Below, one piece after another: positions 21,227 to 27,933 of a stretch of DNA of 64,000 nucleotides. Position 1 is the stretch's first letter. Each line of letters starts with the position of its first letter. The translations under genes and the position numbers were made by a program. The notes under the pieces are model-generated. The model searched no databases, had not been told where the DNA came from, and saw only the letters and a program-made list of their open reading frames with translations. The stretch is from Roseibacillus sp. (GTDB taxonomy: Bacteria; Verrucomicrobiota; Verrucomicrobiia; Verrucomicrobiales; Akkermansiaceae), in NCBI GenBank assembly GCA_051251855.1, contig JBPOGI010000001.1:1152001-1216000 (forward strand), read 5' to 3'.

Positions 21227-23386
21227 ATGACTCTCCGCAACATCCTCCCAACCATCACTCTCATAGTCGGGATTGCTTTGGGACTCATGGGAGCAAGGAC
21301 CTTCCCTTCCTCCGGACAAACCTCCAACACCTCCGCTCACACCAAATCTAACGCACAAAACTCCTCGAGATTCAGAAATCCTTCTCACGCCCAAGCCAAC
21401 AAAACCTCCCCTTCAAGCAATATCTTTACCGGTTCCGCAGAAGATCTTCTCGCCCTCCTTCCAGCCAACAACACGTGGATTCCGACTGTTCGGTTTCTCT
21501 CCACCGTCGAAAGACTGCCCCAAGAACAGGTCGAAACTTTGTTAGAGGAACTGCAAAGCGCCTCCCGTTCGGAGGGGGTTAGGATGGCTGAAAACACCCT
21601 CATCCGTCGCTGGGCTCAACTTGATCCCGAAGGGGCATTTACTGCTACCCAAAGCTTTGACCCTAAAAAAATCAGATTCGATCTCATTGCGACCGTCACG
21701 ACAGAGATGGCTTCACAGAATCTCGAACGATCCATTTCCTATGCGGACACTCTCACCAACAAGCTTGAGAAAAAACTCTTTTTGGAGGGGATAGCAAAGG
21801 CCATCACCGAGCAAGACGCTGAACGGGCCCTTAAACTTTTCGCGCAGGCAATCAAAGAAGATTCATCTACCGGAACCATGTCTCAGTCCTCTTCGCACTA
21901 CTCTAACATGACCTATTTAGCTTGGCTAAAACAGGACCCAAACGCCGCTATCGCAGCAGTCGCAGGAATTGAAGACCCTGCCAAACGTTTTCAAAATCAG
22001 AAGAATTTTGCACGCGCACTTGCAACAAGAGATCCGGAGAAAGCTCTCTCTTTAGCTTTGAGTTTGAAAGGAACTGAGCGACTTGAATTGCTGGATGGTG
22101 TGATTACAAATACGGCCCGTAAGGACCCTCAGAAAGCTCTCACTTTTCTCAAGGAAATTCCTGACGGCCCGAAGAGAGACGACGCTCTCAACAGTCTGTA
22201 TAATAGTTGGTTAAAAAAAGATCCCGAACAGGCCCAGGCTTGGATGCAAGCGCTCCCAAAAAAGGAACAAGCAAAGGTTCTTCGAGAAAGTATCAATCAT
22301 CTGGCCAAGCACGATATCGAAGGAGCGCTCGACCTCTTGGATAGCTTTCCTCCCAGCGCTGATACTCCGGGCCATTATTCAAGTCTCATTGACCGCTGGG
22401 CTGATTCTGATCCTGTGGCAGCTCAAGCATGGGTTGAGCAACTGCCTCCCGGGCCGGCCCGAGAATCAGCCTTGGATGAACTCGTAGAGCACCTCACGAT
22501 AAAGAAGCCTTCTCAAGCCGCCTCTCTCCTCGCGGGAGAACTCATCAATAGCGGGAATAGCCGCGATGTCTCCCAAATCGCCGAGAAGTGGGTTCTCACC
22601 GATCCAGACGCCACCTTAGCTTGGTTAGGCTCTCTGAAAGCCTCCGGAACGACCCGACAAACCTTCATTGCAGAAACCATCTATCACCTCGCTGAGAAAG
22701 AACCCGCAAAAGCCGCGGCCTATACCCTCGACATCGAGGATCCTAAAGTCCGTGAAGGAGCAATCAAGTCACTTGTCTTTGGATGGGGGGAGCAAGATTT
22801 GGAAAGCGCCAAAACTTGGATCAAAGCCCATCTCACAAAATCCGAACAAGCGAGCGCTCATAGCTCCTTGATCAGAAAACTCAGTTACAAGGAACCAGCC
22901 AAAGCCCTCGCGCTTCTCGAAGAAGCATCTCGAGGGCTCGCCCCTGAGGAAATTAGAACGCATTTCAGTCGTAACATGAGTGCTATTGCCACTTCTTGGG
23001 CCGGGACCGATCCTGCCGCTGCAGCCTCATGGGCACAGGGCCAAACTGACCCCAAGGACCGGCAAACATTGATAGCCAAGGTGGTCGACAAGTGGGCTCG
23101 ATATGACACCACTAGCGCCGCCAATTTTGTGCTCACTCTCGACGAAGGCGGGGAACGCGATTCCGCGATCAAGAACTTAGCTAAGGATCTCGCTCGGTGG
23201 GATCCCGAGTCAGCCTTCCTCTGGGCGGATAGTGCCGCAGATGAGAAAGCCCGCGAAAGCATCATCCGTTCCACTATCAACACTTGGAAGCAATCCAATC
23301 CCGAAGCCGCCCGAGAGGCCGTTCTCGGAGCCAACATCACCGAGGAGCAAAGAGCCAGCATCCTCAAAGGATTCAAATCGAACTAA
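21227..23386 (+). CDS. Large membrane-anchored helical-repeat hypothetical protein
   Basis: N-terminal anchor and more than ten W-x3-DP-x-AA repeats, same style as 8128-9438. Confidence 0.8.
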   Translation: MTLRNILPTITLIVGIALGLMGARTFPSSGQTSNTSAHTKSNAQNSSRFRNPSHAQANKTSPSSNIFTGSAEDLLALLPANNTWIPTVRFLSTVERLPQEQVETLLEELQSASRSEGVRMAENTLIRRWAQLDPEGAFTATQSFDPKKIRFDLIATVTTEMASQNLERSISYADTLTNKLEKKLFLEGIAKAITEQDAERALKLFAQAIKEDSSTGTMSQSSSHYSNMTYLAWLKQDPNAAIAAVAGIEDPAKRFQNQKNFARALATRDPEKALSLALSLKGTERLELLDGVITNTARKDPQKALTFLKEIPDGPKRDDALNSLYNSWLKKDPEQAQAWMQALPKKEQAKVLRESINHLAKHDIEGALDLLDSFPPSADTPGHYSSLIDRWADSDPVAAQAWVEQLPPGPARESALDELVEHLTIKKPSQAASLLAGELINSGNSRDVSQIAEKWVLTDPDATLAWLGSLKASGTTRQTFIAETIYHLAEKEPAKAAAYTLDIEDPKVREGAIKSLVFGWGEQDLESAKTWIKAHLTKSEQASAHSSLIRKLSYKEPAKALALLEEASRGLAPEEIRTHFSRNMSAIATSWAGTDPAAAASWAQGQTDPKDRQTLIAKVVDKWARYDTTSAANFVLTLDEGGERDSAIKNLAKDLARWDPESAFLWADSAADEKARESIIRSTINTWKQSNPEAAREAVLGANITEEQRASILKGFKSN

Positions 23387-23388
23387 GG

Positions 23389-23513
23389 CGAGCTCTTTCG
23401 TAGTTGAATTGGCCGCAAACTCAGCAGCCCTTGCTAACGCTCAACTTCCAAGAAGGCATTTACGATAGAAAGAAGCCACAAGTAAGGAACTTGTCCCAAC
23501 TACGAACAGCTCG
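23389..23513. repeat. 125-bp element bounded by imperfect inverted repeats
   Basis: CGAGCTCTTTCGTAGTTG (23389-23406) vs CAACTACGAACAGCTCG (23497-23513); internal hairpin ACAAGT-AAGGA-ACTTGT. Confidence 0.5.
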
Positions 23514-23681
23514 ACTGAACCCACGAAAATCACAACTTGCTAGTTTCGCAAAGGGGTCAGATCTAACATTTCTAGAAATGCTGAGCTCTATATCATGATC
23601 GAAATGCGTTACGAAAACCATGCTGACAAAGCTTGAAAAGGCGGCTTGTTTGGGGGGGGGAATACTTGATATGAATCAGCC

Positions 23682-24986
23682 ATGACCTCATTCCAATTTC
23701 TACGCTCATTGTGCACTCTCTGTAGCATAGGCCTCGCCACCCAATTGACCCTTCTTGCCGCAGATCCTACTCCAGAGCGGGACTGGAACTCCAAGGCTGG
23801 CACGACGATCAAAGCGGTAGCTCAGACGGTTGAAAAGAAGACTGTTTCTTTGGTTACCACTGATGGCCGGACTCTGAAGGTCCCACTCGACAAGCTTACC
23901 AATGAGGACCAAGCGTTCCTCATTGAGCACTTTTCCATTGCGATGCCCAAGCCAGGTGAAGCCTTTGGCAGTGATTTAGCCCCAGCCAGTGGACTCCCGC
24001 AAGATTTGGGTGAATCGGCAGCTCCGATTGTCGCGAGCAGCACTTCCAAATACCTTATTTATTTACCGACTACTCTTAAGGAAGGCCGCTCTGCGCCTCT
24101 CCTCTTTTGGACTCATTCTGGCGGTGGCAGCCCCAAAATCTTGAACCACATGAAGCGCGGTGCAGAGTTCAATGGTTGGATCGTCGCCTGTTCAATGGAG
24201 TCTCGAAATAACAATGGTTTCGAGCAGAACCACGAGAACACGAAAGACTGTCTCAAGCACATCAAAGAGAACTTCCCCATCGATCCAGACCGCATCTATT
24301 TCACGGGATCGTCGGGTGGTGCCGCAACCGCGTTCTACAACGCAGTTCATCTTCCCCATGCCGGAGTCCTTTCCTCTGTCGGCTATCTCAATGGAGGAAC
24401 CCCTTCCGGCGGCGACTACTTCATTTCGGGAGGAGCTTATGACTTTAACCGCTATATTTCTGCACGTGCCGGGAAAATGGTCGGAGAAAGAAAGAGCACT
24501 CTTCGCTATCACCCAAAAGGACACGGTGTCGTTCCCGATTGGCTCATCAACGACGGAATGCTCTGGCTCAATCTTCGCTATCTTGAGGGCAAAGAGAAGA
24601 AGATGACCGCCGAGTGCCAAGACTTTGAGTTCCAAACCTTAGCTTGGCTTAACGAGCGCCGCGCCGAACACCCTCACCGAGCATACCATGCCGCCTTACA
24701 AATAACTCAGGCGCTTGAGATTTCGGACCACAACGCCCCCTTCTTCGAAAAGATGATGTCTGAGCTAGGGACGGAGCTGAATAAACGCTACGTTGAGGGC
24801 CTTGAAGAAATGGAAGATTTTGGACGTTCCAAGTTAGAACCTTATGGGGATTCATCTCAGATGAAGCATACCACTCCTCAGCTAGAAGCTGCTGCTCAGA
24901 AACTCTCCACAAAATACGCAGGCGTCCCCGAGATCGAAGAGCTCGCCCTCTTGCTAGGCCGGATCACTGATAAGCTTGGGAAGTAA
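23682..24986 (+). CDS. Secreted SHD1-like domain plus alpha/beta-hydrolase protein
   Basis: RDWNSKAGTTIKA..VPLDKLTNEDQAFL (SHD1-like); IDPDRIYFTGSSGGA nucleophile elbow; HPKGH. Confidence 0.75.
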   Translation: MTSFQFLRSLCTLCSIGLATQLTLLAADPTPERDWNSKAGTTIKAVAQTVEKKTVSLVTTDGRTLKVPLDKLTNEDQAFLIEHFSIAMPKPGEAFGSDLAPASGLPQDLGESAAPIVASSTSKYLIYLPTTLKEGRSAPLLFWTHSGGGSPKILNHMKRGAEFNGWIVACSMESRNNNGFEQNHENTKDCLKHIKENFPIDPDRIYFTGSSGGAATAFYNAVHLPHAGVLSSVGYLNGGTPSGGDYFISGGAYDFNRYISARAGKMVGERKSTLRYHPKGHGVVPDWLINDGMLWLNLRYLEGKEKKMTAECQDFEFQTLAWLNERRAEHPHRAYHAALQITQALEISDHNAPFFEKMMSELGTELNKRYVEGLEEMEDFGRSKLEPYGDSSQMKHTTPQLEAAAQKLSTKYAGVPEIEELALLLGRITDKLGK

Positions 24987-25046
24987 GCCGTAAGCTCAAA
25001 GTGAATCTACTCCCCTTGACGACGTAACTCGGTGAGGGACAACCCC

Positions 25047-25077
25047 AAAAAAACCGACTCCACAAATCGTGGGTCGG
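25047..25077 (-). terminator. Intrinsic terminator of the TlpA-like gene
   Basis: CCGAC-T-CCAC-AAATC-GTGG-GTCGG with A7 on its left (U7 on the minus strand). Confidence 0.7.
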
Positions 25078-25125
25078 CTCCCCTTCTTCTCCTCAATGAG
25101 GCCGGAGAGACCGGTTACCTCTGGG

Positions 25126-25620
25126 TCACTTCTTGCCAGAAGTAGCCGCTTTTAGAGCTTTATCGAAAGCTCGATCCATAATCCCTTGGAAGATTAAAAC
25201 TCCTGCTTCGTCGATGATCATGACCTTAGGTGACTTTCCTCCATCCAGAAATTCTCCAAACTTCTCTTTGTCGTATTTAATCCCTTTTTCGTGATAGACG
25301 GGGAGCCTCAAGTCTAAGGCTTCAGCGGTAGCCTTTCCCTTGGCTGGCTTGTCTGCTTTGTGAGCGACAAGAAAGGTCGCGCCACTGCTCTTCTTCCGAC
25401 GGGCCAGTTTCTCAAACTGAGGAAGGCCCGCGTTGCATGCTTGTCAGTGCGAAGGCCATGAGGCCAACACGACGACTTTCCCGTCAATATCCGAACGCTC
25501 CAACTCAGGGCCAAACAGGTGCTGCTTAAGAGTAATATAGGAATTCTTCCCTTCGACATTTTCCTCTGCTGAAATCGAAGCAGATAGAAATGCGAATACG
25601 AAGATGGGTAACAATTTCAT
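25126..25620 (-). CDS. Secreted TlpA/ResA-like thioredoxin-fold protein, candidate selenoprotein (UxxC)
   Basis: ORFs 25444-25650 and 25126-25311 share a frame and join through one TGA (25444-25446): GKVVVLASWPSH-U-QACNAGLPQFEKLARR..SPKVMIIDEAGVLIFQG; 164 aa from ATG 25620. Confidence 0.85.
25399..25431 (-). promoter_or_regulatory. Candidate SECIS hairpin inside the TlpA-like CDS
   Basis: GCGGGC-CUUCCU-CAGUUU-GAG-AAACUG-GCCCGU beginning 13 nt after the TGA; apical loop starts with G at +31. Confidence 0.55.
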
Positions 25621-25736
25621 TAACTTCATCTTCTTTAAAATAGGCCGCATCCCCCTACTGAAAAGCTTAAAATGAGTTCAACCTCGATACCTAGACCACC
25701 ATCCGTATTCGAATTTGGCGTAGCGCCAATTTCAAA

Positions 25737-26855
25737 GTGACGATAGTTCGATCTTCGACGAAACCAACCCTCGCTTTCTCACCAATTCCAAAATGCGTTC
25801 TCGATTCTCATTGCGAAAATACGGGAAGGGCTGACTCTGTGGACATCGTGAAAGACGTCGTCGACATCAACCGCCCTTCCCCGCAGGCCCTTCTGCAGAA
25901 AATTGCCCGATTCGGGTTCATTCCCGTGGCCATCATCCTTCTTGGCCTTATCGCCATTTTCACCTCCATTTACCAAGTTCCGGCCGACTCCAATGCGGTC
26001 ATCCTTCGTTTTGGAAAGTATACCAAGACCGTCGACCGCGGACTCCATTTCAAGATGCCCTTCGGCATCGACCGTAAATACGTCATTCCCGTCCGCCGCC
26101 AGCTTAAGATGGAATTCGGATTCGGCACCGCAGGTTCAACGAATCGCTACCAATGGGCTTCGCGTCAGGTGCAGGCCGAAGAAATGTCCATGATCACCGG
26201 CGACCGCAACGCCGCCCTCGTCGAATGGGTAGTGCAATACCGCATCGATGACGCTCAGAGTTACCTCTTCCGGGTCCGCAATCCTGAAATGACCTTGCGA
26301 CATGCTTCTGAATCCGTGATGCGTGAAGTAGTCGGCGACCGCACCGTCGACGAAGTCATCACCATCGGCCGCCAAGGCATCGAAGTTGAAGCAGTGGAAA
26401 AACTACAAGCCCTCGTCAACGATTACGGACTCGGCTTCGGCATCACCCAAGTGCAGCTCAAAAACATCAACCCTCCCCGCGCCGTTCAAGCCTCCTTCAA
26501 CGAAGTCAACCAAGCGCAGCAAGAACGAGACCGCATGGTCAACATTGCTCGTGGTGAATACAACAAGAAGGTCCCCCGCGCCAAGGGTGTGGCCGACCAA
26601 AAGGTGGCCGAAGCCGAGGGCCAAGCCACCCAGCGAATCAACGAAGCTACCGGTGATGCCGAGCGCTTCCTCGCTCTCTTTACCGAATACGAAAAGGCCC
26701 CCGACATTACCCGCGAGCGCCTTTACCTAGAACGCATGAAAGAAGTGCTTCCCAATATCAAAAGCAAAATCATTATCGACGGAGAAACCGGCAACGCCCC
26801 TCTCCCTCTTCTCCACCTCGGCGGAGAAGCAACTCAACTGAAAGGAAATCAATAG
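25737..26855 (+). CDS. hflK: FtsH modulator HflK
   Basis: SPFH domain, MITGDRN, VQASFNEVNQAQQE, YEKAPDITRERLYLE. True start is probably downstream (GTG near 25848). Confidence 0.95.
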   Translation: MTIVRSSTKPTLAFSPIPKCVLDSHCENTGRADSVDIVKDVVDINRPSPQALLQKIARFGFIPVAIILLGLIAIFTSIYQVPADSNAVILRFGKYTKTVDRGLHFKMPFGIDRKYVIPVRRQLKMEFGFGTAGSTNRYQWASRQVQAEEMSMITGDRNAALVEWVVQYRIDDAQSYLFRVRNPEMTLRHASESVMREVVGDRTVDEVITIGRQGIEVEAVEKLQALVNDYGLGFGITQVQLKNINPPRAVQASFNEVNQAQQERDRMVNIARGEYNKKVPRAKGVADQKVAEAEGQATQRINEATGDAERFLALFTEYEKAPDITRERLYLERMKEVLPNIKSKIIIDGETGNAPLPLLHLGGEATQLKGNQ

Positions 26856-26856
26856 A

Positions 26857-27933
26857 ATGAAACGAGGACTCTACGCCTTCATCGGCCTCATTGTTGTGCT
26901 GGTGCTCTTAGTCGCAACTGGCTCCTTCTTTACTGTTCGAGAAGACCGTCAGGTCATCCTGACTCAGTTTGGAAAACCCATGGGCGATCCTATCGTCGAG
27001 CCTGGGCTCAAATTCAAGCTCCCCTTCATTCAGGTCGCCAACCAAATGGAAAAGCGCGTGCTCGAGTGGGACGGTCAAAGCACCCAGATGCCCACTCGGG
27101 ACAAACTGTATATCAAGGTCGACACCTTCGCTCGTTGGGAGATTGAAAACCCGCTCGAATACTTTGAGAAACTGCGAGACGAGCGAAGCGCCAAGTCTCG
27201 TCTTGATGACATTTTGGGAAGTGAAACTCGCAACATGGTCGCCAAACACGACCTCATCGAAATCATCCGAAGCACCAAAGGTCGCGAACCTCAGCAGCAA
27301 GAGGACATCGGGGAAATTCTTGGCGAGCAAGGAACTCTCGAGCCCATTCGGATCGGCCGCAGTGCCATCGAAAAAGAAATTCATACCGCAGCGAAGGGGA
27401 AGCTCGAAGACTTCGGCATCCGCTTGTTAGATGTTCGCTTCAAGCGCATCAACTACACCTCTGCCGTGGAGAGCCGCATCTTCGAGCGCATGATTTCTGA
27501 GCGTCAGCAAATCGCGGAGCGCTTCCGCTCCGAGGGAGCTGGTGAAGCCGCCCGTATTCTCGGAAACATGGAAAAAGAAGTTCGCACCATCGACTCCGAA
27601 GCTTACAAGCGCATTCAAACCGAACTCGGTCGTGCTGATGCCGAGTCCACCCGCATCTATGCCGAAGCCTATGGCGCCACTTCCCAGCAGGAAGAATTCT
27701 ACAGCTTCACCAAAACCCTGGAAGCCTATCAGGAAATTCTTGGTAAAGATACTTCGCTCATTCTCTCCACAGACAGCGACCTTTTCCAAATGCTCAAAGG
27801 GCATTCGAAGAAGCCCGAGGTCAAAGCGGTTTCTGCCCCCGCCCCTGTGAAAAAGAAAGCTCCGCGACCTCCAGCGGTTGTTCCTCAGCCCCAAGTGGAA
27901 GACACACCTCCACTATCGATTAGCGAAGAGTAA
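26857..27933 (+). CDS. hflC: FtsH modulator HflC
   Basis: QFGKP..PGLKFKLPFIQ, FERMISERQQIAERFRSEG, FYSFTKTLEAY; immediately follows hflK. Confidence 0.95.
   Translation: MKRGLYAFIGLIVVLVLLVATGSFFTVREDRQVILTQFGKPMGDPIVEPGLKFKLPFIQVANQMEKRVLEWDGQSTQMPTRDKLYIKVDTFARWEIENPLEYFEKLRDERSAKSRLDDILGSETRNMVAKHDLIEIIRSTKGREPQQQEDIGEILGEQGTLEPIRIGRSAIEKEIHTAAKGKLEDFGIRLLDVRFKRINYTSAVESRIFERMISERQQIAERFRSEGAGEAARILGNMEKEVRTIDSEAYKRIQTELGRADAESTRIYAEAYGATSQQEEFYSFTKTLEAYQEILGKDTSLILSTDSDLFQMLKGHSKKPEVKAVSAPAPVKKKAPRPPAVVPQPQVEDTPPLSISEE

Follow-up and report, generated by a model that had tools for sequence, protein, structure and literature searches.

A predicted exported thioredoxin-fold selenoprotein with a U-x-x-C active site in Roseibacillus sp.

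Introduction

In thioredoxin chemistry a nucleophile attacks a disulfide and a second cysteine resolves the mixed bond. Among bacterial selenoproteins, Table 1 of PMC13188914 lists a ‘Prx-like thiol:disulfide oxidoreductase’ (PF00578, UxxC/UxxU) and a ‘Redoxin family protein’ (PF08534, UxxC), and a PF00578 UxxC class is also listed in the accessible text of PMC9312934. According to the accessible text of PMC13188914, selenoproteins are rarely retained by aerobic bacteria and Cys-to-Sec is the common direction of conversion in bacteria. The bacterial SECIS rules of the same paper specify a loop of 3–9 nt with G[G/U] in the first loop positions, 16–37 nt from the UGA, a stem of at least 4 pairs and an MFE of at most −7.5. 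In Caulobacter, ScsB-TlpA-PprX constitutes an envelope peroxide-reduction pathway (PMC3322552, accessible text).

The window analysed here, a stretch of 64,000 nt of the Roseibacillus sp. assembly GCA_051251855.1 (contig JBPOGI010000001.1, 1,152,001–1,216,000), contains a minus-strand gene with an in-frame TGA, referred to as the UQAC gene. Its read-through product shares with the Prx-like and Redoxin classes, as tabulated in PMC13188914, the same Pfam domains over cut-off, the UxxC motif and a TGA with a SECIS-type hairpin; this match is by domain and motif criteria, and the protein differs in belonging to a small separate clade, among whose known members there is no other Sec form. The gene adds one clade to the catalogued UxxC Prx-like/Redoxin selenoprotein class, not to the named TlpA/ResA families, and the gain from this gene alone is modest. 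TlpA, ResA and CcmG (DsbE) resemble it in fold, N-terminal hydrophobic stretch, first-strand W-x-x-x-[C/U]-x-x-C motif and a later Pro, but it has an inferred Sec as attacking residue, only 15–27% identity to solved members, no ResA-type Glu and no adjacent cytochrome maturation genes. NF041054 (ResA-like WAxxUGC motif protein) likewise has a ResA-like fold with Sec, but carries a UGC rather than a U-x-x-C motif, and the UQAC protein is half its length. Compared with the Caulobacter pathway (accessible text of PMC3322552), the genome has an analogous DsbD-family transporter, TlpA-like protein and PrxQ-like ORF; here, however, the TlpA-like and PrxQ-like parts both have a TGA, the genes are unlinked, and the transporter belongs to the DsbD family without being classed as ScsB or DsbD proper. 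Literature searches, largely confined to openly available main texts, listed nothing published about this clade or about the selenoproteomes of Verrucomicrobiales. The main texts of BSepDB and deep-Sep make no mention of Verrucomicrobi- or TlpA, although the gene may be listed in their supplements or database.

Results

Reading frame and sequence features

An earlier note on this DNA had interpreted two short ORFs, 25444..25650 (minus strand, 68 aa) and 25126..25311 (minus strand, 61 aa), as one gene interrupted by a single TGA. The two lie in the same frame, and with the TGA read as U a protein of 174 residues results, with a single internal TGA (U69, 25444-25446) and no other stop, in agreement with that interpretation; all motifs quoted in the note were recovered letter for letter.

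25126..25650, minus strand: UQAC gene, read-through coding sequence, 174 aa plus final TGA stop
25444..25446, minus strand: in-frame TGA, inferred Sec U69, aligned to the first Cys of the relatives’ CxxC
25435..25446, minus strand: U-Q-A-C active-site motif (U69-Q-A-C72)
25567..25620, minus strand: predicted signal peptide or membrane anchor, residues 11–28, cleavage site uncertain
25228..25230, minus strand: Pro141, thioredoxin-fold cis-proline position by alignment, conserved in 10/11 rows
25047..25078, minus strand: intrinsic-terminator-like hairpin with one bulge and a 7-T run (z −2.44; 0/200 shuffles as stable)

The proposed U-x-x-C active site is thus found as U69-Q-A-C72, preceded by L-A-S-W-P-S-H, and C72 is the sole Cys of the protein. 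Three ATG starts are possible (25650, 25629 and 25620), the last being the database gene call. The only strongly hydrophobic stretch is at the N-terminus (11-residue mean 2.54 at residue 13, by hydropathy only) and lacks a lipoprotein Cys. In the public protein collection the gene is stored as two fragments, one of 58 residues ending at His68, which is found on 2 contigs and comes from both NCBI and Logan, and one comprising the C-terminal 61 residues; rejoining them into one gene repairs the annotation. The terminator noted after the gene is present as a bulged hairpin followed by a T run (25078-25047), of which a strict scanner gave the inner 5 bp only (1 site vs 1.1 expected), while a search for a sigma-70 promoter found no match.

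Domain, fold and coding signal across the TGA

With U scored as C, the read-through protein passes the Pfam cut-offs for both AhpC-TSA (PF00578; 41.8 bits vs 26, E 1.2e-10, residues 47–152) and Redoxin (PF08534; 35.9 bits vs 26.6, E 7.9e-9, residues 51–156), the check that had been suggested for it, and both matches span U69. An AlphaFold2 model built from an 11-row alignment has a mean pLDDT of 81.9, exceeding 90 over most of the domain, with low confidence at residues 8–34. It shows a thioredoxin fold with a TlpA-type N-terminal extension and insertion, and its best solved fold matches are of ResA/DsbE/TlpA type (Foldseek E 8.7e-9; Z 13.7, rmsd 3.6, 132 aligned) and include CcmG.

The label TlpA-like given earlier holds for the fold, but not for family membership: the protein misses the NCBIfam cut-offs for TlpA (21.4 vs 230 bits), ResA (35.4 vs 170), StoA (19.9 vs 210) and DsbE (11.7 vs 123) by a wide margin, and that for NF041054 (WAxxUGC; 19.6 vs 300 bits, E 4.5e-4). 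Since these cut-offs are missed, we describe it as a protein that would work like TlpA without filing it as one.

Residues 3′ of the TGA stay conserved in an alignment of the nearest relatives. The hexamer coding score downstream of the TGA is 16.9, compared with −12 to −47 in the other five frames, but this test is weak because 11/43 of the long read-through frames that follow other TGA codons do equally well. Coding scores were also screened genome-wide for TGA read-through, without discriminating power: hits were about as frequent in TAA and TAG contexts.

Sec machinery of the genome

The machinery on which a selenoprotein reading depends was located: selA, selB, selD and tRNA-Sec (selC) all exceed curated cut-offs in this 95%-complete genome, and its selD itself holds one internal TGA. 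As a separate observation on its tRNA genes, ten are arrayed within 1.5 kb at C10:114076-115599, apart from the scattered core set.

TGA/Cys pairing in homologues

Sixty-four homologue loci were examined, of which 59 had readable active sites (five were dropped because they had no motif or fell below threshold). The active-site codon is TGA in 17, TGC in 37 and TGT in 5; after duplicate removal 14 TGA forms, including the UQAC gene, and 36 Cys forms remained. In the alignment check proposed by the earlier note, the TGA aligns with the conserved first Cys of CxxC. Homologues from 13 other genomes likewise have TGA in this column; all 13 genomes are selA-positive, and these are distant homologues, not orthologues. 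Among 55 chosen genomes, a selA match is missing from 23, and in these 23 the matched homologue never shows a stop. Three more genomes, with a TGA seen in the match, are all selA-positive. Cys is kept in several selA-positive genomes. As kin are not independent, this pairing is to be taken as a pattern rather than as a p-value.

A parallel is provided by a wider group of WG-x-x-[U/C]-x-P-C TlpA-like proteins of Verrucomicrobiales (37 loci), in which this column is Sec or Cys. The SECIS loop of the UQAC gene is also built by Pro-Gln-Leu/Phe codons in 6 further TGA forms, but identity to the UQAC protein is only ~25–35%. Grouping the UQAC gene with the TGA forms of this WG-x-x-[U/C] group was rejected (p-AU 8.7e-5), so simple orthology with them does not account for it. 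A WG-x-x-U-x-x-C TlpA-like group is widespread in Verrucomicrobiales (L023, L033, L034, L044, L045, L061, L064, L072, L077, L078 and L080). Two SECIS layouts recur in it, one based on Pro-Gln and one on Pro-His codons, and Sec and Cys forms alternate across the tree, at least 7 changes being forced by supported branches.

The UQAC clade and its origin

The nearest relatives of the UQAC protein (30–48% identity) form with it a small clade (support 100/100, 18 rows) with the signature WxAH-CxxC and FEKxARRKK; one of them, P0181, is named ‘TlpA family protein disulfide reductase’ by NCBI. Among the 17 other members found, CxxC is present in 16 and one has lost both Cys; none has Sec. Intact TGA forms cannot appear in protein databases; the four distinct members read as DNA all have TGC or TGT. 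The clade is rare (4/401 family genomes): among the 400 other genomes of the family three have a member, all Cys forms, and one of the three (G357) is selA-positive. A search of 8 congeneric genomes gave no orthologue. The possibility raised earlier, that close relatives all have TGC/TGT with the TGA unique to this assembly, proved partly true: the nearest relatives found all carry TGC/TGT, except where the Cys has been lost.

Searches for further relatives were extended to DNA and to protein fragments. Single-sequence scans of genome and metagenome contigs gave 383 and 576 pattern matches, with no relative confirmed, and alignment-based scans gave 2 loci each, all Cys. No split-gene relative was seen among 11 candidates of 30–57 residues, and a search of fragments of 58–403 residues recovered both pieces of the UQAC gene, whereas no relative was seen to stop directly ahead of the active site.

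Most relatives have an extra N-terminal SHD1-like domain that is missing from the UQAC gene, which lies on a long branch (0.85 changes per site) without a second lesion. Within the clade it is basal in one tree, with weak support, and one step inside in another (36 rows drawn from the first set together with six new hits), neither placement being rejected (p-AU 0.47 and 0.45). The tree does not give the direction of change, but as Cys-to-Sec is the common direction according to the accessible text of PMC13188914, gain is favoured and a Cys-to-Sec switch in the UQAC gene is plausible. The gene and its Cys relatives constitute a natural Sec/Cys pair for asking what Sec adds in an oxidising envelope. 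A chimeric origin from two homologue groups was also considered, with only blocks 57–66, 147–156 and 167–174 leaning clearly toward the other group; it was set aside because most ten-residue blocks (9/14, including all of residues 67–146) score better against the gene’s own clade.

A SECIS-like hairpin within the coding sequence

Downstream of the TGA a two-part hairpin with a G-initiated loop is found as described in the earlier note.

25397..25432, minus strand: SECIS-like hairpin with lower stem, internal loop, 4-bp upper stem and GUU loop (25417-25415)
25414..25422, minus strand: Pro77-Gln78-Phe79 codons, building the apical stem and loop

The 6-bp lower stem begins 13 nt past the TGA (in the minimum-energy fold it is extended by two pairs, from 11 nt) and the G of the GUU loop lies 26 nt from the TGA, with an energy of −17.1 kcal/mol, or −17.4 kcal/mol when evaluated under the SECIS rules. 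Stability alone is unremarkable (z = 0.00, −1.45, −2.76 and −0.28 for four window choices). In our own implementation of the PMC13188914 rules, the hairpin meets the bacterial SECIS model (GUU loop, 26 nt, 4-bp upper stem), as do only 43/2000 synonymous recodings of the downstream codons, 7/2000 being also as stable. The model with the G[G/U] condition is passed by 12/14 TGA forms vs 1/36 Cys forms; the rule is nevertheless permissive, with background passes by 27/222 true TGA stops and 42/600 Cys codons.

Gln at the position of residue 78 is present in 7/14 TGA forms and in 0/36 Cys loci, and in none of 16 database proteins counted from the gene’s own clade, the 17th member (L051) having Glu; the Pro-Gln-Phe codon string that builds the loop is found within the clade only in the UQAC gene. 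The loop recurs, in the same register and at the same distance, in two further TGA thioredoxin genes of this genome. These comparisons support a SECIS-type hairpin specific to TGA forms, and this bacterial SECIS has apparently been written into the protein at the cost of amino-acid changes.

Proposed function

Residue 69 is very probably selenocysteine. The earlier choice of a selenoprotein over a pseudogene is favoured because the genome has the full Sec machinery and both domain and fold span the TGA, and because the TGA/Cys pairing tracks selA and the SECIS-type hairpin is specific to TGA forms. The gene likely encodes an exported Sec-containing thioredoxin-fold reductase that is re-reduced by DsbD. 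As a first step, SelB would, with high confidence, bind the hairpin and deliver Sec at codon 69, failed recoding releasing a fragment of 58–68 residues. Hydropathy predicts, with good confidence, that the N-terminal hydrophobic stretch would direct the protein to the periplasm, where it would be cleaved or remain anchored. The Sec69 selenolate would then attack a substrate disulfide and Cys72 would resolve the mixed bond, leaving a ring selenenylsulfide, and the DsbD-family protein of the genome would probably re-reduce it, as suggested by the presence of that gene and the rule for the family. As to substrates, the precedent of the Caulobacter ScsB-TlpA-PprX relay (accessible text of PMC3322552) tentatively suggests, by analogy, that these might be envelope antioxidant enzymes, e.g. 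a PrxQ-like protein (L099) or an MsrA (C1:1613901) of the same genome.

A more inclusive reading would make the gene a lone Cys-to-Sec convert in a non-Sec clade, with its SECIS loop, the one used by unrelated TGA thioredoxins, rebuilt by convergent Pro-Gln-Phe codons. It would then be among some eleven thioredoxin-fold selenoproteins that are predicted to be exported, and part of a DsbD → Sec-TlpA → Sec-PrxQ envelope relay in an oxidase-bearing bacterium; taken together, this combination is doubtful.

Alternative explanations

The protein could be a selenoprotein but act as an isomerase, oxidase or direct peroxidase instead of a DsbD-fed reductase. A hydroxyl residue before the cis-Pro is a feature of DsbC/DsbG, and the UQAC protein has Ser before Pro141 where its clade has Trp, as well as a Gln-Ala dipeptide unlike the Gly-Pro or Pro-Pro of most homologues. 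Some TlpA-fold proteins, e.g. DsbE/DsbF of M. tuberculosis, which are among the fold matches, are oxidases, and Sec enzymes can directly reduce peroxides. The model, however, lacks a dimerisation or helical insertion domain, and the redox potential of an Se-S ring is usually low, favouring reduction. The peroxiredoxin active site PxxxTxxC, as given in the accessible text of PMC3322552, is also absent. We regard such an activity as improbable.

A dedicated maturation reductase, either of CcmG/ResA type acting on apocytochrome c or of TlpA type acting on the copper sites of cytochrome oxidase, would have all steps up to re-reduction in common with the DsbD-fed reductase and differ only in substrate. 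The best fold matches include ResA, CcmG and DsbE, cytochrome c assembly proteins and heme-copper oxidases are encoded in the genome, and the relative L051 adjoins an ORF that we take to be an oxidase subunit II look-alike. On the other hand, the ResA, TlpA and DsbE cut-offs are missed; Gly75 is found three residues past the second Cys, where ResA has a Glu (C77 and E80 in the numbering of PDB titles); and the clade is present in 4/401 family genomes, vs heme-copper oxidases in 9/9 congeners. A role of this kind is also unlikely.

The remaining alternatives concern the TGA itself. A recent pseudogene, in which a nonsense mutation turned the TGC/TGT of an ordinary CxxC gene into TGA, would suit nearest relatives that are all Cys forms or have lost the Cys, and a gene that is missing from 8 congeneric genomes and sits in a variable block. 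Yet the stop falls exactly on the catalytic codon, which just 1 of the 78 single-base changes able to create a stop in this gene would hit, no second lesion has accumulated despite the long branch, and the Sec machinery is complete in a genome that has further TGA thioredoxin genes. A nonsense mutation would moreover leave the loop-forming Gln/CAG-TT change (7/14 TGA forms, no Cys form) unexplained, because it does not bring this change along, and a pseudogene is accordingly very unlikely. A single-base sequencing or assembly error at the TGA is even harder to credit: the TGA form is known from one genome, but the 58-residue fragment ending at His68 occurs in both NCBI and Logan, on 2 contigs (the second assembly being probably from the same sample), and a base error leaves the SECIS-specific features unexplained. 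Reading of TGA as tryptophan (code 4 type), with Trp at residue 69, can be dismissed despite the listing of UGA-to-Trp recoding for Verrucomicrobiota in the abstract of PMC13462651, because TGA ends 430/1951 long ORFs and release factor 2 is present (over cut-off), and also given that the only tRNA with a TCA anticodon is tRNA-Sec and that the residue-69 column is Cys, not Trp, in relatives.

Gene neighbourhood

Between polA and hflK the window contains a block of three ORFs (21227-25650), encoding a 719-aa helical-repeat-like protein, a 434-aa hydrolase-like protein and the UQAC protein.

23682..24986, plus strand: 434-aa ORF, convergent with the UQAC gene, weak SHD1 and hydrolase matches, part of the polA-hflK block
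25737..26855, plus strand: hflK, divergent neighbour, no sign of a functional link
26857-27933: hflC, following hflK

In synteny comparisons with 8 congeners hflK was matched in 4/8, with different DNA upstream and no orthologue of the UQAC gene: polA abuts hflK in G006 and different genes are found there in the other three. As polA adjoins hflK in G006, the block occupies a variable insertion site. The gene context is not common to relatives of the UQAC gene, and its neighbourhood contains nothing pointing to DsbD or to a substrate.

Other TGA-containing and redox genes of the genome

The TGA screens supplied ten more ORFs in which the N-terminus is hydrophobic and the TGA lies in a U-x-x-C/U-like or TPGU context. 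Eight of the ten match thioredoxin-fold Pfam families at E <0.01, and six are over a cut-off. The eight are:

L092, C11:42440
L093, C1:1584111
L094, C11:99365
L095, C10:234380
L096, C9:31937
L097, C6:141969, with two TGA (UPSU)
L099, C8:303832, the PrxQ-like ORF, with its own TGA and a lipoprotein-type leader
L100, C1:1812084, over the NCBIfam cut-off for VPGUxxT type 2 selenoprotein

The other two, L098 (C7:209947, minus strand) and L101 (C10:209784, plus strand), have hydrophobic leaders and the motifs T-T-U-G-P-C and E-T-U-E-D-C, respectively. Neither matches a Pfam or NCBIfam family at E 0.01 or passes the SECIS rule; they possibly represent an uncatalogued selenoprotein family.

The genome encodes a protein with DsbD_N, DsbD_TM and thioredoxin domains (DsbD family). 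It also pairs heme-copper oxidases with many predicted exported TGA-thioredoxin genes, against the rule for aerobes in the accessible text of PMC13188914.

Several further TGA ORFs were noted. In a long Gly/Gln-rich frame at C1:1073661 (minus strand), ~3 kb from the DsbD-family gene, the sequence on either side of a TGA scores well as coding and a SECIS-type hairpin is present; the TGA may be either a true stop or an unrecognised Sec site. An MsrA at C6:461829 (plus strand) has TGA in G-U-F-W-G and is over the Pfam cut-off, with no clear leader, and the second MsrA, at C1:1613901, is Cys-type with a hydrophobic leader. An ORF at C6:486626 (minus strand), presumably DUF3179-like, has G-V-Y-U-T-L-C without a SECIS-type hairpin, while a small ORF at C9:35000 (minus strand), which we take to be SelW-like, has C-x-x-U with such a hairpin.
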